A DNA stretch of 64,000 nt from the IMG/VR virus record IMGVR_UViG_3300002988_000032, positions 12,793-76,792 of that record. One strand, written 5' to 3'. The notes below the pieces were generated by a model that was given only the letters and a program-made list of their open reading frames with translations, did not search any database and was not told the DNA's origin. How positions within the stretch are numbered: the first letter of the stretch is position 1; each line of letters opens with the position of its first letter. Of this stretch, positions 8,633 to 59,862 are shown one piece after another. This DNA is from a virus. The position numbers and the translations under genes were made by a program.

Positions 8633-10669
8633 TCAAAGGCCGGGGATCCGCCCCATCCTCGCCGCGACGGGGGCGAAGGGCTGAATTTTCAACGGGGGCG
8701 CGGCGGTCGGCACGACACGGACGCCCTGATCGTCATCGTCTCGCTCTTCCGACGGCTCATCTCGCGGCGGCGGCGGATGCAACCGCACCACCTGCATGAG
8801 TTCCGCCGCCGCCTCCTGCATCATTTCGCAGTCGAGATAGTGATTGGCGCCGGTTTCCTGCCAGTACGGCTTGCCGTTCTTGAGGATGCGAGTCTCCGAC
8901 GCGACCTGTTTCGCGTAGCTTTCATCCACATCCTCGGGCAGATGCCATCCGCCCAGGATTTCCTTCCGGCGGCTGATCCGCTCGTAGACCTGCGTCTTGA
9001 AGTAATCGGTGTTGAGGCGGTGCAGAATCAAACCGCCGTATTTCCTCGGCTTTCCCCGGTAATCCACGTCGCCGTCTTGAGACGCCAAGCGGCGCCCCCC
9101 GGCCAAGGTCGGTTCGCCTTTGATCGGTTGGGCGAACATCTTGTTGAAGCGGCGACAGAAGTCGTAAACGATGTTTTCCGGGAGCACCGACGGGCGTCCG
9201 GGCCGATAGCCGGAGTCGATCAACAGGCGATTGACGGTCATCCCGCCGGGAAGGCTTCCCCGGACGATCTCCTCCAGATTATCCCACACCTCGATCTGGT
9301 CGGTGTCGCCGGCGACATAACCATAATCGATCAACCAAGACTCGCGGCGCGCGCCCCAGCCCCGCATGACCCAATAGACGCCGCGCTTCTGAACGTCCGC
9401 CGTGACCGCGATGCGCTGAACGCCGTATGGGATCTGTCCGCGCTTGTAGGGCAGTTTACATTCCGCCACGTCGGCGTGTTTCGGGGCGTCCGCGGCCGGG
9501 GCGTAAAGTTCGCCGTATCCGGTGTTGAAGACGACCTTCACTTCCTTGGGGTCGCCGGACTGATGCGCCTCGACGTCGTCCTTCGCCCTGTCTCCCCACG
9601 ACACGAACGGGGACGCGAGGCCCGACACCCAAAACGACACCGTTTCTCCCGCCGGGATGTCGCCGACCAACTCGCCGGTCCAGGGAACAATCCTTTGACC
9701 GGGGGCGACGAACACGCCGCGTTCGTTCATCCACGCCTTATGTTCGCCGTCCTCGATGTCGCATCCGCATTTCGGGCAGGAGATATGCGCCGTCGCCTTG
9801 GCCCGCATCGGGTCGGCGGTCGCGATATCGTCCTTGCCGTCGTACTTCAGAATCGATCGGCGCGGGATGAAGAACTCGCCGCAATGCGGGCACGGCCACG
9901 CCCATTCGTGCCGCGTCCCCTGTTGCCACATGCGCCACGTCGGCGACGCCAGTTTCTTCGGATCGGCGTGAACCCACCGCTCCAGCCCCGTGTCGGGGTC
10001 GTACTCGGAGAACACCCGTCCCTCCAACGGGGTGCAGATGATGCCGGCCTTCCCGTTCGGATAGGTGAACAACCGAGCGCGCGCGAGGCGAACCGGGTCG
10101 CCCTCGTCCGACACCTTGCCGGTCATCCGGTCGCGTTCATCCACGAGAAGGAGAGCGACGGAATCCGACGCCAGTTGCGACGACGACGCGGCGGAAATCA
10201 GCCGGAGTTTCGCGCCGTTCACCACCTTGCGGCGTTTTTTCTGCGCTTTGCCCCACACCGTTTTCCGCCGAAGAGACGGGGTTGAACGAAGCATCGACAC
10301 GATGTCGGGTTCGAGTTTGTCCTCCAAAAAGTCGCGGTCCGGGCCGACGTAGAAGATGGGGGCCGGGTCGTCGTCCAGGCGATGCCCGATGATCGCCATG
10401 AACGACAGGGTTTTCCCCATCTGGGAACCCATGACGGTCACGATCACCTTGTAGCGCGGGTCCGAGAAGGCCCGCATGATCGGCACGACATACGGGGTCC
10501 GCGTCGGGTCGTACCGACCGGGAACCGGACTGGTCGGCGGAAGGTCCATGCACTGGGCCGCCCATTGATCCGCCGTCCTGGCGGGAGGCGGTTGGATGAT
10601 GCCGGCGCAAAACCGAAGGAGGGCGGACCGGTTACTCGTCCTCGTCGCCATCGCCGGACTCGTCATCAC
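8633..10669 (-). CDS. Terminase large subunit, lambda gpA family
   Basis: GSQMGKT Walker A, LLLVDERDRM Walker B, EGDPVRLARAR, CPHCGE and CPKCG Zn motifs, NHYLDCE nuclease motif. Confidence 0.93.
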   Translation of the reverse strand: MMTSPAMATRTSNRSALLRFCAGIIQPPPARTADQWAAQCMDLPPTSPVPGRYDPTRTPYVVPIMRAFSDPRYKVIVTVMGSQMGKTLSFMAIIGHRLDDDPAPIFYVGPDRDFLEDKLEPDIVSMLRSTPSLRRKTVWGKAQKKRRKVVNGAKLRLISAASSSQLASDSVALLLVDERDRMTGKVSDEGDPVRLARARLFTYPNGKAGIICTPLEGRVFSEYDPDTGLERWVHADPKKLASPTWRMWQQGTRHEWAWPCPHCGEFFIPRRSILKYDGKDDIATADPMRAKATAHISCPKCGCDIEDGEHKAWMNERGVFVAPGQRIVPWTGELVGDIPAGETVSFWVSGLASPFVSWGDRAKDDVEAHQSGDPKEVKVVFNTGYGELYAPAADAPKHADVAECKLPYKRGQIPYGVQRIAVTADVQKRGVYWVMRGWGARRESWLIDYGYVAGDTDQIEVWDNLEEIVRGSLPGGMTVNRLLIDSGYRPGRPSVLPENIVYDFCRRFNKMFAQPIKGEPTLAGGRRLASQDGDVDYRGKPRKYGGLILHRLNTDYFKTQVYERISRRKEILGGWHLPEDVDESYAKQVASETRILKNGKPYWQETGANHYLDCEMMQEAAAELMQVVRLHPPPPRDEPSEERDDDDQGVRVVPTAAPPLKIQPFAPVAARMGRIPGL

Positions 10670-11276
10670 GGCCCGCGTCCGTGTCGCGGTACGCGGTGTC
10701 TTCGGCGTCCTTGATCCGCCGCGCCGTCTCCTCCAATACGGCGCGACATTCGTCTTGAATCATCCGATGCCGCTCGGCCGCCGTCTTCCCTTCCAGGGGA
10801 TTCGCCAAACGACCGGCGAGACCCAACACGCTCGCGCGAAAATGGGACATGATCTCGCCGTTCGCCGCGTGGACGTCCTCCTTGGGGTAATGGTCGCGAT
10901 CGTGCGCCTTGACCTCCCGCATTTTCATCTCGGCGTCCCAATACATCTTGGCGGCTTGAGACACGCCGAACGCCGGGATCAGGTCCATCGGGACAACCGT
11001 TCCGTCCGGGAACTGAACGGCCACGTCGGGGTTCGCCCGGATCACGTCGATCGGGGGGACCGACGCCGAACTCGCGGACGGGGGCAAGGACTCCTTCATT
11101 TTCGGCTTGGTCCGATCGCCGTTGGCGTCCCACCACGCGTCGGCCTCGGCCGGGTCGATTTCCTTGTTCGGGCCGTGCGTCGGCATCCCCTTTCGAACGC
11201 GGCGCATGACGGTGGAGGGAACCACCCCCTTCATCCGCGCGTATTCGGCCTGGATGACGAGTTTGCGGCGAGCCAT
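10632..11276 (-). CDS. Terminase small subunit (Nu1-like)
   Basis: N-terminal wHTH (AEYARMKGVVPSTVMRRVRKGMP...AEADAWW) and coiled-coil C-terminus; overlaps the large subunit start. Confidence 0.85.
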   Translation of the reverse strand: MARRKLVIQAEYARMKGVVPSTVMRRVRKGMPTHGPNKEIDPAEADAWWDANGDRTKPKMKESLPPSASSASVPPIDVIRANPDVAVQFPDGTVVPMDLIPAFGVSQAAKMYWDAEMKMREVKAHDRDHYPKEDVHAANGEIMSHFRASVLGLAGRLANPLEGKTAAERHRMIQDECRAVLEETARRIKDAEDTAYRDTDAGRDDESGDGDEDE

Positions 11277-11278
11277 GG

Positions 11279-12058
11279 TCAGGTGTTGCCGGGCTTCCCG
11301 GTCCCGCCTTCGATCGACCGTTTGACGGATGGGAACGCGTCAAGGCTGATCGTATGGCCGCCGACCGCGACCATGACGTCGCCGCTCGGATGTCGCGACG
11401 CCTCACCCGGAGCGATGATCGCGGAGGCGGGGGATGCCGTCGCGGCCCTCTCCTTCGCCTTGTGAAGAAGGTTGAGGATCACGTCGGCTCGCGAGGGGCG
11501 GGGGACCGCGACGATCCACTCGCGCGGGTTCGTCACGTCCACCGTGCGAACCGCCGTCACGCGGCCGCCGTGGTTCGCCGTCACGACAACGGCATCGGGC
11601 GAGTGGACGTGACGAATGATGTCGCCGGGAACGAGCTTCCTGAATCGCTCGGGCGTCATGCCCATATCGTCGTCGGGGTTCCCCTTCGCGCCGCCGGCGC
11701 TTCCCAAAACCATCTCGCGGACGCGATCGGCGAATTCGTCGGTCGTCACCCATAAGATTGTGGCGTGAGGGGATGTTTCGGCCCGCCGCTTGATGAGCGG
11801 CACCAACCAAGGCTCTATCCGGTCGGCGTCATCGACCACGATGCGCCGCGCCACCCAACCCAGCAGCCCGAGTTCCGTCGCTTGGGCGATTGCACACCGC
11901 AGCCCGAATTTGCGGCGAAGAACGAGCGCCCGCTCACCGCTTGAACACACGAACCGCGTCGGCTCCCCCGCGTCGCGCATGGCGTTGGCGTAGGTCGCGG
12001 CGAGCGCCGTCTTGCCCGACAGCTCGGGGCCGGTGATGAAGATGTGGTTGGTGGTCAT
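11279..12058 (-). CDS. P-loop NTPase-like hypothetical protein (259 aa)
   Basis: GPELSGKT Walker A and IVVDD Walker B; start moved to ATG 12058. Confidence 0.55.
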   Translation of the reverse strand: MTTNHIFITGPELSGKTALAATYANAMRDAGEPTRFVCSSGERALVLRRKFGLRCAIAQATELGLLGWVARRIVVDDADRIEPWLVPLIKRRAETSPHATILWVTTDEFADRVREMVLGSAGGAKGNPDDDMGMTPERFRKLVPGDIIRHVHSPDAVVVTANHGGRVTAVRTVDVTNPREWIVAVPRPSRADVILNLLHKAKERAATASPASAIIAPGEASRHPSGDVMVAVGGHTISLDAFPSVKRSIEGGTGKPGNT

Positions 12059-12223
12059 CCCGGCTCCTGATTGTCGGTCTTCAGCGTTTCCCATCAGGGT
12101 ATCTCTCCCGACGCCAAGGCGCCCTTGACCCAATCCGGCGCGTCCGACGCGGCCTCGATCGTGATCGGGCCGTTGACGACGAGCCAACGGCCCGATCTCG
12201 GTACCGGCCTCGATCCGCATGAT

Positions 12224-12532
12224 TCACCCGTCGATTCCCGAGATACTCAACCCGAACGCGCCGGAATCGACCGCCCGCGAAATGGCGGCGTCGAACGCGC
12301 GATGTAAAAGCGTCGTTCCATCCTCCTCTTCCCGCCTCAATTCGCGGATAAATTCATCGACCCAAACCAGTCGGTCCGTCACGTTCACACGGGTCGACTC
12401 ATTCCCGCCGCGGCCATGAATCAGATCATCCAACGCGGGACCACGCTCGGTGGCGGACACGAGCGCGTCCACGGTCAATCGGACAACAACCTCATTCCCC
12501 TCGATCTCAACCCTCATCATGGAATCTCCCAT
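12224..12532 (-). CDS. Hypothetical protein (102 aa)
   Basis: Co-oriented ORF with balanced amino-acid composition and GGAGA RBS. Confidence 0.55.
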   Translation of the reverse strand: MGDSMMRVEIEGNEVVVRLTVDALVSATERGPALDDLIHGRGGNESTRVNVTDRLVWVDEFIRELRREEEDGTTLLHRAFDAAISRAVDSGAFGLSISGIDG

Positions 12533-12711
12533 GTCTCAATCGGAGACGGACGCGCATCACCCGACGCTCCCGGCTTTCGGCGTTTCGGCACCGTCCCGTT
12601 CGCTCGCCGCGCGAGCCTCGCGGCGGATGTCGTAGTCCTCGAAACCGGCGCGCTTCAGCGCTTCCGCGATCTTCAACGGATCGCGGGGCGGACGGCGGGA
12701 GAGATCCGGAA

Positions 12712-12957
12712 TCACGCTTCGCTCCGGTTCATGGGATGGATCAATCCCGCGGCTTGGCCGGCGGGGAGCCGAGATCGATCATGATCGAGGTTCCATGCGG
12801 CGGACGGGGAGGGCGCGCGGCACACCGCGTGAAGGACGGCGAAGCCAAAGGCGGCGCCGAGGAGGAAACACAGCGCGCCGACGGCGCCGAAGGCGAGAAT
12901 CGCCGTCGTCGTTCCGCCGCCCGAGGAGAAGCCGGCGCGCGGAGGAGGGGAGGGCAT
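12712..12957 (-). CDS. Small membrane protein
   Basis: One hydrophobic segment (AILAFGAVGALCFLLGAAFGFAVL); start overlaps the upstream stop. Confidence 0.4.
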   Translation of the reverse strand: MPSPPPRAGFSSGGGTTTAILAFGAVGALCFLLGAAFGFAVLHAVCRAPSPSAAWNLDHDRSRLPAGQAAGLIHPMNRSEA

Positions 12958-13108
12958 CAGGAGGGCGCTCCCTCGAAAATCAGGACCAGGGGGCCGAGGC
13001 GGTACCAGAGCGTTCCGTCGGCGGGGCCGGACCAGGATCGACCGTTTCGCGTGGGAACGGACGGGCCGAGGCCCCAGGTTCGGGGGTCGAGGGAGAGGGC
13101 GAGGGCGA

Positions 13109-13441
13109 TCACGGGAGCGGAGTCCGATCGACGGCGGAGGCGCCCAGCAAACGGGGCAGCCAGCGCGAGACCAGCAGATTCAGCGCCGCCGGACCGGCGT
13201 AACCGATCGTGACGCAGATCACCCCCGTGGTGTTCTCGTCCGCGCGCAGAATGTTCGCCACATAAAGACCGAGCACCGTGAGGGCGCCCAGGGACGGGAT
13301 GTCGTAGACGATCCGCCGCAACGTTCCCTTTCGACCGCTCCGCAGTTCCGCCGACCAGCGGGCGAGCGCGCCCACGGTGACGGTCGCGCCCGCGAACAGC
13401 CACGGCTTCAACGCCGCGAACAGATCGGAATGTTCGGACAT
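13109..13441 (-). CDS. Probable holin (110 aa)
   Basis: Three hydrophobic segments, IGYAG motif, basic C-terminus; first gene after the late promoter/terminator. Confidence 0.55.
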   Translation of the reverse strand: MSEHSDLFAALKPWLFAGATVTVGALARWSAELRSGRKGTLRRIVYDIPSLGALTVLGLYVANILRADENTTGVICVTIGYAGPAALNLLVSRWLPRLLGASAVDRTPLP

Positions 13442-13475
13442 CGGCGCCTCGGTTCTGGGTCGGTCGCGGGCAGAC

Positions 13476-13513
13476 AAAAGAAAACGGCCCACCCGGGGGT
13501 TCCGGGTGGACCG
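13476..13513 (-). terminator. tR'-like terminator ahead of the late genes
   Basis: CCACCCGG/CCGGGTGG stem followed by TTTTCTTTT on the minus strand. Confidence 0.6.
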
Positions 13514-13621
13514 CGACGCGATCTTGACCGTATTGATAGGTCGAAGCGCGGGAAGTTGTAACGTTCCATTATTGACGGACTGATTTCAGCCCATCAATAG
13601 TGTCGGGCCTGAATTGATCCG

Positions 13622-14449
13622 TCAATGTCGGACGGCTCCGCGTTCCCGCCGCCCGTTCAGTGCCGCGGTGATCCGTTTCACGCCGTCGGCTTCCCAGCGT
13701 TCGACGGCCGGATGACTGACGCCTTTCGCGGCGCCCCGGCGTTTCATCTCCTCCGAGACGAGGACCGCCGTTTTGCGAAGCGAAAACCCCGCGAGCCGCA
13801 GTTGGAGCGCCAAACGCCGGGGAACGTCGTCGATCAAGAACAGCCACGGCAGAACCTCGTCCAGGCGACGAAGCGCGTCGGGCGCCGGCGCGGCGCGGAT
13901 CAGGCGCGGGCGATCGAGGCCGTTCAGCGCCGCCTCCCAAATCTCGGCCGCGGTGCGGGCGACCTCGAGGCGCGCGCAGACGCGACCCGACGGGATTTCC
14001 CCCGCCGGGAAGCGGTCGCGCCACAGCGTTTCCATCGCGTCTTGAAGCCGGGCGCGGACGTCGCCCTCGCTCCAACGACCGTCGGGGGAGGGCGCCGGGA
14101 TCGGTCGGAACTCCGTGCGGCGGGGGTTGAAGTAATCGGAACCGGGGGCCGTCAGGCGATCGGACTTTCGCGCGCGGCCCGCGGAAAATCTTCCATCGTC
14201 GAAGCCGTGACTGTCGCGCCATTCGGCGGGCGTCAGCGCCTCCGACGCCTGGATCCGAACCTCATCCGTCAAATTCGGCGGATCGGAGGGCGTCGTCAAT
14301 CGCGCCGTCAACGCGGCGCCGGCCGCCGCGACCGCCCCCCGGGAGGAACGACGCGCCTCCTCCAGTTTCCGCGCGAGGGCGGATGTCGACAGCTGCCCGG
14401 ACTCCGCTCGAATCCGATCGCGGCGGCGGCGCGAGCGGGCGCCCGTCAC
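13622..14449 (-). CDS. DUF6362-like late transcription regulator (Q-equivalent position)
   Basis: WSEGDVRARLQDAMETL...LRRLDEVLPWLFLI pattern; GTG 14449 overlaps the upstream stop. Confidence 0.55.
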   Translation of the reverse strand: MTGARSRRRRDRIRAESGQLSTSALARKLEEARRSSRGAVAAAGAALTARLTTPSDPPNLTDEVRIQASEALTPAEWRDSHGFDDGRFSAGRARKSDRLTAPGSDYFNPRRTEFRPIPAPSPDGRWSEGDVRARLQDAMETLWRDRFPAGEIPSGRVCARLEVARTAAEIWEAALNGLDRPRLIRAAPAPDALRRLDEVLPWLFLIDDVPRRLALQLRLAGFSLRKTAVLVSEEMKRRGAAKGVSHPAVERWEADGVKRITAALNGRRERGAVRH

Positions 14450-14664
14450 GCCGCCTTCTCCATGGCGCGGGCCGCCTGCCACCACACGGCGAGCGCGGTG
14501 CGGCTGGTCGCGCCCGTCGACCTTCTCATGTCCCGGATGCGGTTCGACACCGTGTGAGGCGAAATTCCCAGTCGGGCGGCGATCGCCTTGTTCGTCGACT
14601 CCCTGCCGGAACACAGGGCTTCGAGAACGGCGAGTTCGGAGGGGGTCGGAGAATATCGCGGCAT
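14446..14664 (-). CDS. LuxR-type HTH protein (72 aa)
   Basis: TPSELAVL...TNKAIAARLGISPHTVSNRIRDM is a LuxR/GerE HTH pattern. Confidence 0.8.
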   Translation of the reverse strand: MPRYSPTPSELAVLEALCSGRESTNKAIAARLGISPHTVSNRIRDMRRSTGATSRTALAVWWQAARAMEKAA

Positions 14665-15513
14665 CGGCGCCTCGCGCGAAGGGGGGATCTCGGGGACAAG
14701 TATAGCCGGGGGACGAGCCTCGAAAAAGGCACAGGCGATGAGGGGGGGGGCGGGGAAGGAGGGGAAGGGCGCGCACAGCCGCGGTGCGCACCAAACACGC
14801 CCTCAAATCGTCTGATTTATTCGCATTATCAATGCGTTGAACGGCGCGGACGGGGAGGGTCGGTGCGCACCCCGATCCCTAACGCCGAATAAAATCTCCA
14901 CATGACCCCTGACCGGTGGGGAACCCCAAATTGCCGCGGAGATTTGATCCCCCTACCCCTCATCCAGTCGGGCCGACCGCGCGTTGCGGGGCGTTGCGGC
15001 AACTCCCGCCACGCGCAATGACCGCCGCAACGGGAACGCCCCGTCGCAAACGGCCATTGGTTAACGTTTTCAGATCGTTGCGGGATTTTGTTAATGCGCC
15101 GGCCGGAAGGCGAAACGACGAGTTGCGTTGGTTTTGAACCCGAAAAATACTCGCGCATAGCCAGCGGCCACGCCCGCGGGTCATTGGGGCTGGGAAGAAC
15201 CTACACTCGCGGGCTGCCCGTGGGTTGGCCCGTAGACGCGAGGCGTATAGAGTTGGATATCTCTCATGCGGCGAACTTACACCGCACTCACGAGCCAATC
15301 CACGGGCTTGTAGGCGATGCGCGAAAAATCGCCCGATCGCGGCCACTCCGGCCCATGCCGCGCGACTCTCCGCCGGGCGGACACGCGAAAGCGCCCGGCG
15401 CCGCTCTACGAGGCGTCGGGTTGCGGTTGGCGTTGCATGAGGGCGGGACACGCTTCACCCCGCTCCGCTGGTGTGCGGGCGGGGCGTGGCGTGATGCTAT
15501 GCTTGATCGGGAG

Positions 15514-15741
15514 CTAGTCGGCGGAGTATCGAGCCGACGGCGTGGGGCGTAGCTCGGGCGGACACCTAGGGTCAGTCCATAGGGTCACTAGGACCGTCGC
15601 CGGGCCGGGGATGTCGTTCTCGCCGGCTTCCCAGCGCCGGACTGTCCGCCCACCGTTGCCGCCCAGTTTGAGCGCGTCCGCCATGCCTTGAGCCGAGAGG
15701 CATAGCTTGCGCCGCGCCTCCCGGAAGTCGTCCGGTGTCAT
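15514..15741 (-). CDS. XRE/KorC-like HTH protein (75 aa)
   Basis: MTPDDFREARRKLCLSAQGMADAL...GRTVRRWEAGENDIP. Confidence 0.8.
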   Translation of the reverse strand: MTPDDFREARRKLCLSAQGMADALKLGGNGGRTVRRWEAGENDIPGPATVLVTLWTDPRCPPELRPTPSARYSAD

Positions 15742-15929
15742 CCCACAGCGGCGAGTTTGTCGGGGATGAGGCGAATCGCGATGCGGCTCAGATCGTCAAT
15801 CCGCTTGGATTGTTCCTCGGTCCGAGCGTTGGTCGCGACGATGAGGGGGTACATCGCCTTGAGGAGGCTCTTGATTTCGGCGATGTCGGACTCGATCCTT
15901 GACAAACGCTCGTCGGCAGCTTGGGCCAT
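15738..15929 (-). CDS. Small coiled-coil protein (63 aa)
   Basis: LSRIESDIAEIKSLL heptads; GGAGA RBS; stop overlaps the HTH start. Confidence 0.6.
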   Translation of the reverse strand: MAQAADERLSRIESDIAEIKSLLKAMYPLIVATNARTEEQSKRIDDLSRIAIRLIPDKLAAVG

Positions 15930-26395: not shown

Positions 26396-26671
26396 ATGGA
26401 ACCGACCCACGGAGATACCGCTCTCGAGACCTTGAGGCGTCGCGGGGCGACGACGCTGGAGATTTGGTGCGTCTCGGGATGGGTGGACGGAAAGCGATGC
26501 CGAAACCATGGTTCCGTCAAGATCGACGAGGCTGTCCGGCGATGGGGGCCGGGGACACCGTTGGTGATGATCGCCCGTCGAGCGCGCTGTCGACTATGCG
26601 GCGCGCGAGGCGCCCATGTTCAGGCGACAACACCCTATTCCACACCCCACCCCACACCGGCGAATTGGTGA
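26396..26671 (+). CDS. Zn-binding hypothetical protein (91 aa)
   Basis: WC...C and RCRLCGARGA cysteine pairs. Confidence 0.55.
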   Translation: MEPTHGDTALETLRRRGATTLEIWCVSGWVDGKRCRNHGSVKIDEAVRRWGPGTPLVMIARRARCRLCGARGAHVQATTPYSTPHPTPANW

Positions 26672-26815
26672 TCTCGACCCGGCCTCGCCCTTATGAAGGC
26701 GTTTCAACCTTCTCAACGCGCAGTCGATCCACGTCGATATTCAAACACCGCGACGCCCAGCGCGCGAAGTGAAGACGCGTCCACGAGAGCGAGGGGACCG
26801 GCGGCGGTTTTCGTC

Positions 26816-27229
26816 TCAGAACGGAATATCGTCGTCGAGATCGTCGTGGCGCGGCGCGGTTTCCGTCGGTCGGGGGCGCGCCGGAGCGCTTGCCTTCTCG
26901 TCGTGATCGCCTTGCCCTTCGGGTTTCCCGCCGACGAGCGTCACATCGTTGACCCGGACCCGAAGGCCGGACGCCTTCGATCCGTCTCGACGCTCAAACT
27001 CATGGATCGTCAACTCTCCCGAGACGACGACCTGCTGTCCCTTTTTGAGGTGCGGCGCGACGGCTTCCGCCCGCTTTCCCCACATCGAGCACTCGACCCA
27101 TTGCGTGGTCTTGCGGTCGCCGAAGCCCACGTCGTTCGCGGCGCGGAAGCTCAGCACGCGCTCGCCGCTCTGCGTCGTCCGCAACTCGCCGTCGGCGCCG
27201 AGGCGCCCGGTGAAGGTCCATACGTTCAC
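26816..27229 (-). CDS. ssb: Single-stranded DNA-binding protein
   Basis: GRLGADGELR OB fold, TQWVECSMWG, acidic tail DDDIPF. Confidence 0.95.
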   Translation of the reverse strand: MNVWTFTGRLGADGELRTTQSGERVLSFRAANDVGFGDRKTTQWVECSMWGKRAEAVAPHLKKGQQVVVSGELTIHEFERRDGSKASGLRVRVNDVTLVGGKPEGQGDHDEKASAPARPRPTETAPRHDDLDDDIPF

Positions 27230-29259
27230 GCGGCTTCTCCATCCTGTTCGGTGTTGGTGTTCGCCCCGCCTTGGGGCGTGGCGTCCTCATCCGGCACACC
27301 TTCCCAGGCGGATTCAGGAATGACGATCTTCGTGTTGTCGCGGACCCATTGCTCGGCGCCCGCTTCGTTCATTCTCGGGTCCGGCATCCCCCGCTTTCTC
27401 AGGTTATAGACGGTCGCCTCGCTCACATTGAGTCTCCGCGCAAAGCTGCACAGCGTTTTCTGTGTTTTTTTGCTGATATCAAGGGCGGACGACAGGAGGT
27501 ATACTCGCTCAACGCTGATGTTCTCTATGATCCATTTGCCTGATCCGGCATCATCAATTCTCGGATCTGGCATCCCACGCGCCATCCAACCGCAAATTGT
27601 TGAAGTGGATACATGGTTTTTTTTCGCGAATTCTGTGAGCGACGTAGAAAACTTATTTGCATCACGTTTTGCGCGAGACCGCTTTCTCAGAGAATCTCTA
27701 TCGACGTTATTTTTGATCCACGCGTCCGCCTCGGCATGATCGCGCGTAGGATCCGGCATGCCGCACTTTCTCCATCTTATAATTGACCCTATCCCAATAC
27801 CTCTACTATTGGAAAACCGAGTTAAAGTCTCACCGGTTTCCTTGCTGTTTTTCAGTGTAGCATTAAGCTGCCTTATTCTATCCGCATCGACATTTCGTTC
27901 AATCCAGTCTATAGCCGCCCCAGCCCCGGCATTAGGGTGTGGCATCCCACGGCTAATCCAGTTGTGAATGGTCGCCTTCACGACCCCGCATTCTTTTGCG
28001 AAACCACTCACCGTCATCGGTTTCGCTGCGCCGCACCTTATTTCGTGGAGCGCCCCATCAAACCGCCCCGGCTCCCGCCCCGCCGGATACTCGTACCCGC
28101 ACTCCGGGCAGATTGCGGAGATCGGATGGGCGCATCCGCACTTCGGGCAACGGCGGATCACCTCTCCCGCCTTCCGGGCGTTCTCGATCCGGCGCGTTCG
28201 CGCTCCACCCTCAAGAGACCATTCAAACGTCGCGTCCGGGAACCCGTGCTCCATGCACATTCCGGCGTGGTCGAGAACCGTCACGATGGTTTTCCCGGCA
28301 TCCAACCGAAGCCCGCGCCCAACCATTTGCAGGAAGACGCGGAGCGACCTCGTGGGGCGCAACAGGATCACGGTTTCGATGCCGGGAACGTCGAAGCCCT
28401 CGATAAACAGGTCGACGTTGACCAAAACTTTGATCCGCCCGGCGGCGAAATCCGCGACGAGGAGATCTCGTTCGGCATCCGGGGAGTTGCCGGAGACGTG
28501 AGCGGCGGATATCCCCGCCTCTTGGAACCGCGCGGCGACATTCTCGCTCATGGCGACGGACGGGCAAAAGACGATTGCCCGCGTCCCCGGCGCGATGCGC
28601 TGGTAATGCTCGATCGCGTCGCCAATCAGGACCGGGCGGTTCATGGCCTTGTCCAGATCGTCGGCGCGGTAGTCGCCCTTGCTCATGCGCGCGGCAGTCA
28701 AGTCCGGCTCGGTCGGGGCGAACCAGCGAAAGCGCGATAGATGCCCGGCGTCGATCAGATCCGCGACCGACGGCCCGACAACCAGCGCCTCGAACAGGTC
28801 GTCCAGCCCCTTCCCGTCCAGCCGTTCCGGTGTCGCGGTCAGTCCGACATGGGCGGCTTGCGGGTGACGCCGCATCAACGCGGCCCACGTCTTCGCCGCC
28901 GCGCGGTGGCATTCATCCCACATGACCGTTTTCGGCTTTGGGAACTCCGCGTCGTGGTTCCGCAGGGTATCGACGGAACCGATTTGCATGAGCTTGCCCG
29001 GCTCTCGCTTCGCCCACGGGGCGATGACGCCAAAATCGATCCCGGCGCGTTTGAACGTCCGCATCGCTTGTTTGATCAGTTCCTTTCGGTGGCACAGGAA
29101 CCACACGGGACCGACCCCAAGCCGTTCCCGCGCGATCTCCACCCCCGTGAAGGTCTTTCCCGATCCGGTCGGCATTTGCAAGACGACGGAGTGATGGGTT
29201 TCGAGCGCCGCCCGCACATCGGTGACGGCCTTGAATTGGTATGGTCGAAGCGCGCTCAC
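27226..29259 (-). CDS. SF2 (DEAD/DEAH-like) helicase with Zn ribbon and four C-terminal wHTH repeats
   Basis: LRPYQ, MPTGSGKT, DECH, LTATP, EGFD, QMVGRGLR; CPKC/CPEC; four GMPxP repeats. Confidence 0.9.
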   Translation of the reverse strand: MSALRPYQFKAVTDVRAALETHHSVVLQMPTGSGKTFTGVEIARERLGVGPVWFLCHRKELIKQAMRTFKRAGIDFGVIAPWAKREPGKLMQIGSVDTLRNHDAEFPKPKTVMWDECHRAAAKTWAALMRRHPQAAHVGLTATPERLDGKGLDDLFEALVVGPSVADLIDAGHLSRFRWFAPTEPDLTAARMSKGDYRADDLDKAMNRPVLIGDAIEHYQRIAPGTRAIVFCPSVAMSENVAARFQEAGISAAHVSGNSPDAERDLLVADFAAGRIKVLVNVDLFIEGFDVPGIETVILLRPTRSLRVFLQMVGRGLRLDAGKTIVTVLDHAGMCMEHGFPDATFEWSLEGGARTRRIENARKAGEVIRRCPKCGCAHPISAICPECGYEYPAGREPGRFDGALHEIRCGAAKPMTVSGFAKECGVVKATIHNWISRGMPHPNAGAGAAIDWIERNVDADRIRQLNATLKNSKETGETLTRFSNSRGIGIGSIIRWRKCGMPDPTRDHAEADAWIKNNVDRDSLRKRSRAKRDANKFSTSLTEFAKKNHVSTSTICGWMARGMPDPRIDDAGSGKWIIENISVERVYLLSSALDISKKTQKTLCSFARRLNVSEATVYNLRKRGMPDPRMNEAGAEQWVRDNTKIVIPESAWEGVPDEDATPQGGANTNTEQDGEAA

Positions 29260-29417
29260 TCCTCACCCTCCCCGCTCAAGTCCGGCTCACGGAACGGCGT
29301 GCGGTCGCGGAATTCGGATCGCTTGCCCTTGTTGAACGACGTGACCGGGCGGTGATAGCCCATCACCCGCGTCCAGATTTCGCAGCGTTGGCGTTCGGAA
29401 TCTTGGAGATCGGTCAT
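29256..29417 (-). CDS. Stand-alone NrdD C-terminal (glycyl-radical motif) peptide, 53 aa
   Basis: Read by hand: RCEIWTRVMGYHRPVTSFNKGKRSEFRDR; overlaps neighbours at both ends. Confidence 0.7.
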   Translation of the reverse strand: MTDLQDSERQRCEIWTRVMGYHRPVTSFNKGKRSEFRDRTPFREPDLSGEGEE

Positions 29418-30661
29418 CACGCGGCCCTCTTGTCGGAGACGACGACCACGACCTCGTCCACGCCCAGGCAGTGGCGGATATCGGCTTCAAGACGCCCGAC
29501 GAGCCAATCGCGGTGCATCACGTTCGGGGCGACAATCCGGGCCGAACCGGAGGAGATGACGATCCCGTTGGCGATGGGAGCGATCCAGCGCTGGTACGTC
29601 GTCGGATCGAAGCGCTCGGACCATGGCGGCGGAACGACGGCGGGAGGGACCGAAGGCCTCGCCGATCGCGTCGCGGCGGCTTGGGCGACGGCTCGGCGAA
29701 CGTCGTGGTCGAGAACGGCGGCGAGGCTGCGCGGCGGGTCGTCGGGCTTGCGTTCGGCGAGACGACGGAACTGCCGGCTAACCTCCTCGGCCACGGCTTC
29801 GGCGGTTCGATCCGGCGTCAAGCCGCGATCGAACCCATCCCCGATCCAGGCCGCGAAAAGCTCCTCGTCGCGGGGGCCGAAGGGGCGGTCCGGCAGGTCG
29901 AATATATCCTCGAACGCCTTGGAAACCGCGGATTTCACGGCTTGTACCGCCGCGACGGTTCCGGCGCCGAAATCCCCCGATCCCGGATCATCGGGCGGCG
30001 GCGGGCCTTCGCGCGTGGGGGTGCGCTCGCGCGTGAAAGCCGCCGCCGTTCCAATTTCAGATCTCTCTTCCCTCTTCCCTCCTCCCTCCTCCCTCAGCGC
30101 GGCCGTTTCCGAACTTTTCGGAACCGACGGGCGTTGATCGGTGTCCGGTTCGGAACTCGACCCGCGTTGGTGGCGCTTGCGTTCTGAACTCGCCCCCCGT
30201 TCACGCGCGGCGAGTTCCGAACACACCCCCACATCATCATCATCCGGTTCCGAACCGTCGTCGCGTTGATCGGTGTCCGGTTCGGAACCGGATCTTTTCT
30301 TCGCGCCCCCCCAAAGGTCCATTCTGACCCATTCATGCAGTTCGGGCGGCAGAGGGTGGACCTTCGTCGGCTTCTTGGGCTTCTGGTAACGGACGAAGTT
30401 GCGGATCGCGCCGTAAACCTTCCCGTGCACCGTGAAGCGCACTATCTGCCGGCGCTCCTCCAGTTCCGACAAGAGGGCGGACATATCGATATTGTCGGCG
30501 GGCATCAGCCGCATCTTCAGTCCGACCGGTTTCCATTCAAAAACCCCTTGGTCGTCGGCCTCGTTACGAAGGGCGAGGACGAGGAGCCGGGCGAGCGCGG
30601 AGCACTCGACGAAATCCTCGTCTGTCCATTGTCCCGGAAAGGTGGAGCGAATGCGCGCCAT
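29417..30661 (-). CDS. Phage replication initiator (O/DnaT-like) with C-terminal DnaA N-terminal-like domain
   Basis: MARIRSTFPGQWTDE...ADDQG N-terminus; TYQRWIAP...APNVMHRDWL C-terminus. Confidence 0.75.
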   Translation of the reverse strand: MARIRSTFPGQWTDEDFVECSALARLLVLALRNEADDQGVFEWKPVGLKMRLMPADNIDMSALLSELEERRQIVRFTVHGKVYGAIRNFVRYQKPKKPTKVHPLPPELHEWVRMDLWGGAKKRSGSEPDTDQRDDGSEPDDDDVGVCSELAARERGASSERKRHQRGSSSEPDTDQRPSVPKSSETAALREEGGGKREERSEIGTAAAFTRERTPTREGPPPPDDPGSGDFGAGTVAAVQAVKSAVSKAFEDIFDLPDRPFGPRDEELFAAWIGDGFDRGLTPDRTAEAVAEEVSRQFRRLAERKPDDPPRSLAAVLDHDVRRAVAQAAATRSARPSVPPAVVPPPWSERFDPTTYQRWIAPIANGIVISSGSARIVAPNVMHRDWLVGRLEADIRHCLGVDEVVVVVSDKRAA

Positions 30662-30679
30662 ATCATGATTCCTTGATTA

Positions 30680-30877
30680 TCAGCGCAAATTTGCCTTGTT
30701 GAGGGATCGCCCCCCGATGGTCAGCAACGCGAAGGCGGCGGCGAAGATGATCTCTCCCCACGAATACGCGACGCGTGGAAGCCGCAACGCGGCGGAGGCG
30801 TCGACCGGGCTGAACCCGTTCTCGATCCACCAGCACACCTGTTCGGTGGCGGCGTCCAGGGCGTCGCTCGCGCTCAC
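30680..30877 (-). CDS. Hypothetical protein (65 aa), paralogue of 31379-31558
   Basis: WWIENGF..DA motif shared. Confidence 0.5.
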   Translation of the reverse strand: MSASDALDAATEQVCWWIENGFSPVDASAALRLPRVAYSWGEIIFAAAFALLTIGGRSLNKANLR

Positions 30878-31092
30878 GCCGCGCCTCCACCAAACGACAA
30901 AATCTCCTGAACCCCCGCGGGCGGCTCGGCTCCGCGCGCGGCCTTGCGAATCTCTTCCGCCGCGTGCGTGAGGCGATAAAACCGCCCGAGATCGGTTTCG
31001 TGTCCGACCTCTCGGCGCGAAGCCTCGGCCATCTCGACGAGGATGCCGGCGGCATGTTGAATCCCGGCGCGGAAGGAGGAGGTCGCCGTCAT
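30874..31092 (-). CDS. Hypothetical protein (72 aa)
   Basis: Overlapping start/stop with both neighbours. Confidence 0.5.
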   Translation of the reverse strand: MTATSSFRAGIQHAAGILVEMAEASRREVGHETDLGRFYRLTHAAEEIRKAARGAEPPAGVQEILSFGGGAA

Positions 31093-31382
31093 GTCACGAC
31101 CTTCGACGCCGGCGATATCCCGCGAATGACGATAAGCCCGCGCGCGGTGCCGGTGCGACCGACGCGACCGCGCTCCTCCAGCCCCCGGATCAGACGCGCG
31201 ACGCCGGACTTCGACTTCAGCCCCAGATGGTCGGCCATTTCCGCGTACGACGGCATCACGTCATCTTCGCGGCCCGACAGAAAGGAGAGAAGGTCGCGCT
31301 GACGCCGCGTCAGTCCGGGCAATGCCGTCAACCGGCTCAATTCCGACGGGCGTCCGCAATACGGACATTTTTCGATCGTCAT
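31089..31382 (-). CDS. LexA-like DNA-binding domain protein (97 aa)
   Basis: LTRRQRDLLSFL...PSYAEMADHLGLKSKSGVARLIRGLEERG; no peptidase domain. Confidence 0.8.
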   Translation of the reverse strand: MTIEKCPYCGRPSELSRLTALPGLTRRQRDLLSFLSGREDDVMPSYAEMADHLGLKSKSGVARLIRGLEERGRVGRTGTARGLIVIRGISPASKVVT

Positions 31383-31558
31383 GATCCACCTCTTCGGCGC
31401 GTGCGCGCGGCGATGCGATTGACGGCCCGGCGCACCTCCGTCCACGTCGGGGCGTGAGCGGTCGCGGCGTCGATCGCCGCGAATCCCTCGTTGATCCACC
31501 AGACCATCATCTCGATCACAACATGTTCGAATGAGGACAGGCGCGGAGCGTCGATCAC
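31379..31558 (-). CDS. Hypothetical protein (59 aa)
   Basis: GTG overlap with the upstream stop; WWINEGF motif. Confidence 0.45.
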   Translation of the reverse strand: MIDAPRLSSFEHVVIEMMVWWINEGFAAIDAATAHAPTWTEVRRAVNRIAARTRRRGGS

Positions 31559-56409: not shown

Positions 56410-56788
56410 GCAGGGAAATGCCAAATTGGATCACGAGCGAAGTGCAGGGAAATGCCAAACTCCCGCCAAACACGGCGGAAAAGCGCGGGTCGGCGGGGGG
56501 GGGATTGGAGCGTTCAACCGTCCGCGGGATCGAAAGAAGCGCCATCGCGTGGGGCGCGGCGTCCGGGGCGGCTTGGCATTTCCCTGCACCCACGTTTCGC
56601 GTCGATTCGGCTTGGCATTTCCCTGCACTCCCGCGGAGATTTCAGTTATCCACAGCGTCGCGTTTGGCATTTCCCCGCGGATTTTTGGCATCTCCCTGCG
56701 CGACTCGGCTTATCCACCGGCATTTCCCTGCACATACAAGTAGTTAATACAATACGTTCTCAAATAGCTTGCGCAGGGAAATGCCAAA
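56410..56788. repeat. Plasmid-type replication origin: eight iterons, DnaA boxes, AT-rich tract
   Basis: GCAGGGAAATGCCAAA at 56410, 56444, 56773 (+) and 56573, 56612, 56663, 56684, 56719 (-); TTATCCACA at 56646, TTATCCACC at 56710; AT-rich 56734-56766. Confidence 0.85.
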
Positions 56789-57780: not shown

Positions 57781-57942
57781 TCACATCGGGGCGACCGTCG
57801 CCCCGTCCATGAGGCGTGCTCTCGCCGAGCCGACCTGATTGGCGATGGTTGCGGGATTTGTTGCGACATGCCCCTATTTCCATGGAAAAGTTGCCGCAAC
57901 CGGTTTATCCTCCGCTCGTGAACAACATTGGGGCGGACGGGC

Positions 57943-58914
57943 ATGAACGGTATGGATCTGCGCGCCATTCGCGGAGAACGGACGCAAGACAAACTCGCGG
58001 CGTGGCTGAACGACCAACTTGATCGCCATTACACCCGCGCGCAAATCAGCCGCTGGGAAACAGGGGCCGAACAAATACCCCCGCGGGTCGTCGATCTTCT
58101 CGACCGCGATACGCGACCGATCGCGCGGCGTACCGTCGTCGCGGTCGCCAATCAAAAGGGCGGCGTGGGAAAAACCACCATCGCTGTGAATCTCGCGGCG
58201 AAACTGGCCAATCGAGGATACAAGGTTCTCGTCGTCGACGCGGACCCGCAAGCGAACGCGACCATCCACATGGGGGTGAACCCGGTCGACGCGCAGAAAC
58301 GCGGGGCGACCCTCTACGAGGCGATGCGCGAGGAACGACGACTGTCGGATATCATCACTCCCGTGTTCGACGGCCGCGTCTCACTCGTTCCATCCGGAAA
58401 CAGACTCTCGCGAATCGACGCGGAACTCGCGGGGGACGGGTTCGCGGCCTTCGTTCTCAAACGATCGCTCGACGCGTTCGACGGTCAGATCGATTTCGTG
58501 ATCATCGATTGCTCCCCCGCCCTTTCCCTGTTGACCGTCAACGCGTTGACGGCGGCCGACTTGGTGTTGATCCCGGTGCAAACCGAGCCGTTCGCGGTGA
58601 CGGGCGTGCCCTTGCTGTTGGAGACCATTTCGAACGTTCGCCGTCGCGGGAATCCGAACTTGGGACTTCTCGGCATTGTCCCGACCCTGTTCGACTCTCG
58701 AAACTCTCAGGATCGCGAGACGTTGGACGACATCAAAGCGCAATACGGCGCGGCGACGCGGGTCTTTTCCCCCATCAAACGCGCCACGGATTACGCGAAG
58801 GCGATTCGGGCGGCGCTTCCGCTTGTCGATTTCGACGATCGCGCCGAGATAACCGGAGTCTTCGATGATTTGGCGACCGCCCTGACCGAGCGGCGAACCG
58901 GAGGGCAAGCGTGA
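57943..58914 (+). CDS. parA: ParA ATPase with N-terminal HTH
   Basis: [30 protein letters not shown]. Confidence 0.92.
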
Positions 58915-59774
58915 TGGCGCGATCGAAGTTCCCCGGCGGCAACACCGCCTTGACCGCCGCCGGTCAAAGACCGTCCGGCGCCGCCGGCGATGTCTTGTTC
59001 GGGACGAGCGCGGACTTTCCCCGTTTGATTGAGGTCGATGTCGACCATATCGAACCAAACCCCAATCAGCCCCGGCGGAACTTCAACGACGCCGAGTTGG
59101 AGGCTCTGGCGCGATCGATCGAGCGATATGGTTTGAAGCAGCCGATTCTGGTTCGAGAAATCGAAGGGAGGTCGGGGGCCTATCTTTTGGTCGCGGGAGA
59201 ACGACGGTGGCGCGCGCACCGGCTCCTTGGCCGCGCGACGATCTTCGCGGTGATCACGACCGGGAACGTCGATGAACTGTCTCTCGTCGAGAACATGCAG
59301 CGCGCCGACTTGAATGTGGTTGAACAAGCGCGCGGCATGGTCGGGTTGATCGAGGTTCACGGCTATACGCAGGAGGAGGTCGGGAAAATCGTCGGGCTTA
59401 GTCGCGCCGACGTCGCCGGAACCTTATCCGTCTCGCGGTTGCCGGACGACATCATCAGGGAATACGAGGCGAACCCGAAGATCGTCACGAGGTCCGCGTT
59501 GATAGCGGTGGCGGCCGCCCCGGAGAGCGCGCGAGCGGAATTATGGAGGCGGGCGGCGGCGGGGGCGACGGTCGCCGAACTGCGCGACATCAAGCGCGAC
59601 GCGAAGGCCCCCATCGACGCCGGAGGACGCGAACTCAGAACCCTCGGGCAGGGGTTGATACAAATCGGCAAGGGCATCGAGAGAGTGGTCGTGGTGAAGG
59701 AGCATATCACCCCCGAACACCGAGAAGCCCTCATCACCCTTCGCCGACGAATTTCCGCGCTGCTTGGGGACTAG
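58911..59774 (+). CDS. parB: ParB partition protein
   Basis: [38 protein letters not shown]. Confidence 0.92.
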
Positions 59775-59787
59775 GTCGACGCTCGGC

Positions 59788-59862
59788 GTCGGACGTCCGA
59801 CACAACCAAACGAGGTGTTGTATCGTGAGTACAAATCGCCGCGTTGTGTCGGACGTCCGACA
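59788..59862. promoter_or_regulatory. Candidate parS: two GTCGGACGTCCGAC palindromes
   Basis: Perfect 14-bp palindrome at 59788-59801 and 16-bp version at 59847-59862, right after parB. Confidence 0.6.

Follow-up and report, generated by a model that had tools for sequence, protein, structure and literature searches.

In this work, a 64,000-nucleotide stretch of viral DNA (the window; positions 12,793 to 76,792 of IMG/VR virus record IMGVR_UViG_3300002988_000032) was analysed around a helicase gene on the minus strand, at 27226–29259. The gene starts with GTG and, according to the list of open reading frames (ORFs) and the translation, encodes a protein of 677 amino acids, here called P0001. 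Residues 1–340 (28240–29259) form a RadD-like superfamily 2 (SF2) motor core with motifs I, II (DECH), III, and VI, assigned from Pfam, PDB, and NCBIfam matches. The SF2 motifs of the two RecA-like domains are all intact in the translation (Walker A, PTGSGKT; DExH, DECH; motif III, TATP; and the arginine-finger motif VI, QMVGRGLR), and the core is above the Pfam cutoffs for ResIII (2.7e-22) and Helicase_C (2.6e-17). A zinc ribbon and linker follow at residues 341–409 (28033–28239), with the four cysteines C371, C374, C384, and C387 in the CPKCG...CPECG of the translation. This CxxC...CxxC element (residues 371–387) gave weak matches to Pfam zinc-ribbon models and is kept in the related helicase of Rhizobium phage RHph_X2_25. 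The C-terminal part consists of four tandem repeats: repeat 1 at residues 410–471 (27847–28032), repeat 2 at residues 472–533 (27661–27846), repeat 3 at residues 534–595 (27475–27660), and the terminal repeat 4, which carries the cap motif WVRDNTKIVIPESAW, at residues 596–657 (27289–27474). The protein ends in an acidic tail (residues 658–677), which by charge computation has a net charge of −5, has counterparts among the family C-termini, and together with the stop codon occupies 27226–27288. All these segments are encoded on the minus strand.

The G-M-P motif recurs in the array at a spacing of exactly 186 nt, so the repeat period is 62 amino acids, made up of a domain core of about 45 and a linker of about 17. 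The repeats are pairwise only 24–29% identical, with invariant F, GMP, P, W, and N. They are visible at the protein level; Tandem Repeats Finder detected no DNA-level tandem array in the gene, and in a DNA alignment of the repeats the similarity is confined to the surroundings of the G-M-P codons. A repeat profile was built from 116 repeats of the helicase family, and a second version of 112 repeats excluded those of P0001 itself. This second profile matched P0001 at E 4e-34 and detected each unit separately, with E values for repeats 1–4 of 1e-5, 0.012, 0.003, and 3e-10 (Z = 1e6). Judged by these scores, the repeat signal is far beyond chance. When the own record was searched by profile, E was about 5e-12 for repeats 2 and 3 and 6.8e-18 for repeat 4. 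The array is basic, with a net charge of +12 and an isoelectric point of 9.8 (repeat 2 contributes +6), and 82% of the 116 family repeats are net positive. A first-pass annotation, made from the letters of the window, had placed four tandem repeats resembling the small terminase subunit (TerS) after the helicase core and zinc ribbon, and all four were recovered at residues 410–657. Its repeat length of about 45 residues describes the domain core and not the period, which is 62 with the linker; its coordinates, 27328–28017, fall inside the array but are slightly too narrow (27289–28032).

Identity of the repeats

Compared with PHROG 57 (terminase small subunit), the array matched at E 2.5e-13 over profile positions 13–75 of 199 only, and repeat 1 scanned alone reached E 6.7e-5. 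The best PDB match of the 116-repeat profile was RppC (6hlk, 2e-5), followed by the TerS DNA-binding domains 7lwr (7e-5) and 7lxs (4.5e-4); further matches were TerS 7lw0, lambda Nu1 (1j9i, 2e-3), and P2 Cox. An AlphaFold model of repeat 1, made with the family alignment, has a pLDDT of 85.7 and contains a helix-turn-helix (HTH), a loop, and two more helices. In a Foldseek-independent comparison of this model with 48,161 chains, 7lxs_A ranked first (Z 5.5, root mean square deviation 1.6 Å over 45 residues) and 6hn7_A second (Z 5.2). MerR regulators (Z 3.2–4.0) and excisionases came next, all of them DNA binders. Modest Z values are expected for a domain of about 50 residues, and Foldseek of the repeat model against the PDB gave no match at E <= 0.001. 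Since sequence and fold evidence agree, the repeats are assigned by profile and model to the Nu1 / small-terminase N-terminal HTH family. The TerS-like HTH nature proposed in the first-pass annotation, for which a comparison of hidden Markov models had been suggested, is thus borne out by PHROG 57, the PDB profiles, and the fold matches alike.

Pfam Phage_Nu1 (PF07471) did not match P0001, and MerR_1 matched over positions 1–30 of 69 only, scoring 23.1 bits with the C-terminal fragment and 19.2 bits with the whole protein at a cutoff of 21.6. The wing region after G-M-P is a loop of 8–10 residues in the P0001 repeats, with no strands or beta-hairpin in the model. The family consensus and the RHph_X2_25 repeats contain an N-G-[WI]-V-x-I segment that could form a wing. 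A single-sequence AlphaFold prediction of residues 340–677 gave a pLDDT of 45, too low for reading the geometry between repeats, and ESM Atlas returned no usable feature match for residues 405–677, its structure rows all having TM < 0.3.

The motif T-[IV]-x-x-W-x-x-x-G-[LM]-P ... W is common to the P0001 repeats, lambda gpNu1, and the TerS domains of cos phages (1j9i, 7lw0, 7lwr, and 7lxs). However, TerS carries one N-terminal copy of the domain on an oligomeric protein, whereas P0001 carries four tandem copies on a helicase, lacks the oligomerisation and TerL-binding regions of TerS, and has a shorter wing loop than Nu1. A parallel in use is RppC of E. coli phage-inducible chromosomal islands (6hlk and 6hn7), which like P0001 is a non-terminase protein reusing a TerS-like HTH. 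RppC itself is small, has a single domain, and forms a pair with phage TerS; P0001 differs from it in being an array-bearing helicase.

The phage also encodes a TerS of its own (P0003; gene 10632–11276, minus strand), with an N-terminal Nu1-type HTH at 11097–11258 on the same strand (phrog_57, E 1.5e-15; own-record profile, E 8.4e-11). This real TerS covers PHROG 57 positions 10–195 of 199, compared with 13–75 in the helicase. By hhalign, the 116-repeat profile and TerS are related with a probability of 96% (E 2.6e-9), and across the 78-kb record the repeat profile matched the four repeats and the TerS N-terminus only. The likeness to the phage's own TerS, already noticed by eye in the first-pass annotation, is therefore seen both by hhalign and by the own-record profile. 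The residues of the recognition helix differ between the four repeats, and from those of TerS. The large terminase adjoining terS is of the lambda gpA type, so the terminase is of the cos type.

Some further features of the terS surroundings may be mentioned. A 313-amino-acid gene at 11279–12220 (minus strand), the end of which precedes the start codon of terS by three bases, has a weak AAA_16 P-loop match and no PHROG match; it is an unusual direct upstream partner for a Nu1-type TerS. A direct-repeat search upstream of terS (12150–15750) found no array resembling R elements. The intergenic region 14700–15150 contains two GGTGCGCACC palindromes, about five GTTGCGG/CCGCAAC words, and a G-rich run, and may be regulatory; no link between it and the helicase was found.

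Family, conservation and age of the architecture

When 1.84 billion cluster representatives were searched exhaustively by profile, 218 proteins were returned at E <= 1e-3. Among the best 150 of these, 27 proteins other than the query share its helicase core (E 1e-72 to 1e-171), and in the resulting 28 cluster representatives (query included) 3–8 repeats tile the entire C-terminus. Those members whose records were looked up, for example in Mesorhizobium loti, are singletons with no more specific name than "DEAD/DEAH box helicase" or "superfamily II helicase". Many non-helicase matches of the profile were not counted; they were poly-HTH proteins of HTH_3, MerR_1, or HTH_23, sharing the HTH core only, or fragments of helicase genes. 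A word-indexed protein search with the array returned the query itself only, and an IMG/VR scan with the whole of P0001 found no close relative.

Most of the 28 C-termini compared end in WVRDNTxIxIPxxAW followed by an acidic tail (in P0001 residues ~644–657, window 27289–27330), and this terminal cap is far better conserved than the internal repeats. Repeat 4 is closest to the last repeats of other members (37–47% identity), and repeats 1–3 have no positional counterpart. The repeats of P0001 are as diverged from one another as from those of other phages, and across all 116 repeats only the structural positions F, G-[LM]-P, W, and N are conserved. These alignments describe a family with a conserved terminal module and an internal array variable in number and sequence.

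An end-to-end orthologue is the "ATP-dependent helicase protein" of Rhizobium phage RHph_X2_25 (QWY83242.1), with 39% identity over 648 aligned positions. It resembles P0001 in its four repeats, and the terminal cap and zinc ribbon are the same in both. Unlike P0001, it shows no compositional dip in the array, and next to it lie an HNH endonuclease and small ORFs instead of an initiator and a single-stranded DNA-binding protein (SSB). In the RHph_X2_25 genome no Nu1-type TerS domain was detected, the helicase repeats being the only profile matches at E <= 0.01. An array present beside no detected Nu1-type TerS weakens the case for an obligatory link between array and TerS. The annotated start of this gene (L001:2837-4810) lies at motif I (MPTGAGKT), and the open frame extends to 687 amino acids compared with the 657 annotated. 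The alignment of the protein with P0001 starts only at residue 29 of the query, and the true start codon probably lies upstream of the deposited one.

With the array as query, one deposited phage genome out of 50,697 showed the architecture, and no plasmid out of 72,556 did. The one deposited phage record is annotated merely as "ATP-dependent helicase", and no description of the architecture was found in the literature. The first-pass annotation had asked whether the design might already be common among annotated phage helicases, and the survey shows that it is not. The combination of helicase and HTH array is real, old, and recurrent in uncultured phages, and appears so far undescribed.

The GC content at 27450–28050 is 45–50%, compared with 64.5% for the whole window, which confirms the visibly AT-richer repeat segment of the first-pass annotation. 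The GC content at third codon positions (GC3) drops likewise, from 0.81 in the core of this gene to 0.47–0.53 in repeats 1–3. By comparing core and array in nine family genes, a dip was seen in six: besides this gene, L002 (0.82 and 0.60), L003 (0.77 and 0.48), L004 (0.72 and 0.48), L013 (0.75 and 0.53), and L014 (0.69 and 0.51). The difference is mild in L012 (0.68 and 0.61) and absent in RHph_X2_25 (0.67 and 0.66) and L015 (0.62 and 0.60). Because the dip recurs in six of nine independent genes, it is a family trait and not the mark of one recent transfer. The array had at first been read as recently acquired. This is not supported, in view of the end-to-end orthologue in RHph_X2_25, at least 27 other array helicases, the positional conservation of the terminal repeat, the divergence of the repeats, and the recurrent GC3 dip. 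The dip could stem from relaxed selection on the internal repeats or from their faster turnover, from exchange of array segments between phages on repeated occasions, or from selection on the DNA or mRNA itself. Inside the AT-rich array, on the coding strand, lies a sigma-70-like promoter match (TTGAAC-16-TAGAAT, window 27875–27902, minus strand), the only one in 26500–31500; it is probably a by-product of composition, because 0.8 matches are expected by chance.

Motor core and genomic setting

The closest characterised relative of the motor is E. coli RadD (YejH), an SF2 DNA repair helicase. RadD carries a C4 zinc-ribbon motif after its second RecA-like domain, and in P0001, too, motifs I–VI are followed by such a ribbon. 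The RadD structure 6jde matched P0001 at E 4.6e-34 over residues 3–335. The NCBIfam RadD model NF053632 was the top-scoring model, with 137.9 bits (E 3.3e-40) compared with an equivalog cutoff of 720 bits. Since the score is far under this cutoff, P0001 is RadD-like and not RadD itself. P0001 further differs in being phage-encoded and in having four HTH repeats in place of the RadD C-terminal domain. According to published work (PMC8887467), RadD serves recombination as an accessory factor linked to SSB and does not act as a helicase by itself; the parallel in P0001 is the translational coupling to an SSB gene.

RadD-like phage helicases that lack the array are much more frequent, with 865 phage records matching the array-less core at E <= 1e-30. 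Those of Xanthomonas phage M29, Escherichia phage ep3, and Lactobacillus phages have the same core and zinc ribbon (35–44% identity) but, unlike P0001, stop about 60–80 residues past the ribbon and have no match to the repeat profile. Possible single-repeat versions in Xanthomonas phage M29 and Escherichia phage ep3, where tblastn alignments reached residue 450–467, were rejected, as their C-termini fail the profile.

In the window, the helicase gene belongs to an operon with the order initiator, 54-amino-acid ORF, helicase, and SSB, all joined by GTGA stop/start overlaps on the minus strand. The replication initiator (414 amino acids; 29417–30661) matches phrog_1408 at E 3.8e-27 over residues 1–182. 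Its C-terminus is DnaA_N-like (E 4.3e-5), at 23.6 bits just below the cutoff of 24.6 bits. The SSB gene at 26816–27229 overlaps the helicase stop with its start (GTGA), and its product has a DDDIPF tail (phrog_44, E 1.6e-35; Pfam SSB, 3e-20). The 54-amino-acid ORF at 29256–29420, with GTGA overlaps to the initiator and the helicase, matches positions 531–561 of Pfam NRDD (PF13597) at E 1.9e-8. These positions are only the C-terminal glycyl-radical segment of the anaerobic ribonucleotide reductase NrdD, and the product could be a mini-protein of the "spare part" kind.

Pattern and repeat searches found an iteron-like cluster of six to seven palindromic TTCSGAAC words, spaced by about 33 bp, inside the initiator gene at 30105–30289. 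The distance from this cluster to the helicase start, downstream in the same operon, is about 850 bp. The cluster has a lambda-style look and, on this sequence pattern, is probably an origin. Over 30065–30289, all within the initiator gene, it includes two identical 26-mers 132 bp apart and adjoins a 30-nt polypyrimidine tract, and its words encode a repeated GSEPDTDQR segment. A second region, at 56410–56730 upstream of parA, contains seven TTGGCATTTCCCTGCA 16-mers in both orientations together with two DnaA-box-like TTATCCAC words. The parA and parB genes lie at 57928–58914 and 58911–59774, and four copies of ACGTCCGAC stand directly after parB at 59788–59854. The record may be that of a phage-plasmid equipped with a centromere and with a maintenance origin of its own.

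The position of the gene across phage genomes is not fixed, and only part of the relatives have it in a replication module. In the Mesorhizobium loti relative, an SSB again adjoins the helicase. Other array-helicase genes lie inside virion clusters (L002:6001-7989, L013:2770-4977, and L015:5001-7307), and L003:2559-4952 adjoins a tail-chaperone gene. Such virion-cluster settings of the homologues comprise a place between capsid and tail-tube genes, one before a tail terminator, and an opposite-strand cassette. The last is that of L015, where the cassette, set between head and tail modules, combines the helicase with AlpA-like and activator genes.

Possible functions of the array helicase

We hypothesize that P0001 is an accessory RadD-like motor of replication or recombination whose multivalent HTH tether retains it on phage DNA, and we hold this reading with about as much confidence as doubt. 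The four Nu1/MerR-type HTH domains, with helical linkers of about 17 residues between them, would form a basic multivalent tether for duplex DNA, which would keep the motor on phage DNA, possibly at clustered sites. The motor core and the co-translated SSB would together remodel forks, branches, or recombination intermediates, and the terminal repeat with its cap and acidic tail probably docks either to the motor or to a partner. DNA binding, tethering, and cap function are what we infer from the observed domain identities, architecture, conservation, and operon context. The tether is favoured because the array is basic, the closest solved structures all bind DNA, and the gene is co-translated with SSB. 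Moreover, the DnaA_N-like C-terminus of the initiator suggests that the replicative helicase is that of the host and P0001 an accessory. In this reading, for which the balance is again about even, P0001 is neither the replicative helicase nor a part of the terminase. The array would most likely serve as an anchor to DNA that is built into the protein, rather than making it a machine of a new kind.

Several observations weigh against this. No target motif for the array was found, and a k-mer search of the flanks of four homologous helicase genes revealed nothing convincing in the way of iteron-like clusters, unlike here. The shortened wing loop and the missing hairpin in the model mean that the DNA-binding mode of the array may differ from that of Nu1. 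The functions of E. coli RadD may not transfer to a protein that scores so far under the RadD cutoff. Furthermore, three to four of the eight homologous loci place the gene among head and tail genes and not in a replication module, a placement which an early replication role does not predict.

If the array reads defined sites, the iteron-like cluster at 30105–30289 is one candidate target. The array might then recruit the motor specifically to an origin, loading it at these iterons or at the 16-mers near parAB, in the way that the C-terminal DNA-binding domain of the phage P4 alpha primase-helicase loads that protein at its origin. The six to seven evenly spaced TTCSGAAC sites upstream of the helicase start, and the second cluster with its seven 16-mers and DnaA-box-like words at 56410–56730, speak for such recruitment. 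On the other hand, the expected reader of iterons within the initiator gene is the initiator's own N-terminal domain, and no comparable clusters accompany the four homologues. Between 3 and 8 repeats occur in the family, and no arrays of sites are known to match this variation; that the four recognition helices differ argues against four identical sites. We regard recruitment to an origin as unlikely, if slightly less so than the other alternatives.

The kinship with terminases raises the prospect that the TerS-like domains read cosB-type elements or contact TerS, so that the helicase acts at or near the packaging site, for example by freeing concatemers of branches or proteins in front of the lambda-type terminase. 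The repeats and the TerS N-terminus are one domain family with its only copies in the 78-kb record here, the terminase is of the lambda gpA and hence the cos type, and the best PDB sequence match is RppC, a TerS-like protein that redirects packaging. The homologues within head-tail clusters (L002, L013, and L015) or beside a tail-chaperone gene (L003) fit as well. However, the gene of the window stands in an early replication operon coupled to SSB, RHph_X2_25 has an array helicase and no detected Nu1-type TerS, and the recognition helices differ among the four repeats and from TerS. No repeated element is common to the terS-proximal and helicase regions. Such a packaging link is given little weight. 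In a bolder form, also of low probability, the array would mimic the recognition head of the small terminase and place an ATP-driven remodeller at cos/pac-type sites. There it might, with equally slight likelihood, couple late replication and branch clearing to packaging, or strip or block the terminases of competitors. This mimicry would explain the head-tail placement of the relatives and the fast diversification of the internal repeats.

It is improbable that the gene is a "moron"-type mobile cassette, which would exclude competing phages or satellites, or serve counter-defence, by binding foreign cos/pac sites or foreign TerS. Its genomic position does vary among relatives, up to the opposite-strand cassette of L015, its internal repeats are fast-evolving and compositionally atypical, and they resemble RppC. 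But PADLOC gave only generic matches of the helicase core to restriction and Dpd ATPases (type IV restriction ATPase, E 4e-36, residues 24–334), a Pfam scan of P0001 found no nuclease or effector domain, and the coupling to initiator and SSB is tight here. Just as improbable is a loss of DNA binding, with the repeats turned into a protein-protein scaffold or a flexible spacer presenting the cap: the conservation of structural positions only, the shortened wing of P0001, and the cap as the best-conserved element would suit it, but the array and most family repeats are basic, the HTH geometry is kept with high model confidence, and the closest solved structures are all DNA-binding domains.

Taking the tethered accessory motor as the preferred reading, the array helicase most likely does an ordinary job in an unusual way. 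Both of its parts, a RadD-like SF2 motor and a Nu1-type HTH, are known, and it is their fusion as an array of 3–8 units with a conserved cap that appears undescribed, such proteins being annotated everywhere simply as "helicase". The recurrent AT-rich internal repeats in GC-rich phages are an evolutionary signal that deserves a survey. Should the array read packaging-type sites, the family would tie replication to packaging in a new way, or would represent a form of interference with terminases. If DNA is indeed bound by the array, the helicase would be a natural translocase with a programmable multivalent anchor, and a tractable system for how accessory helicases stay on viral DNA.

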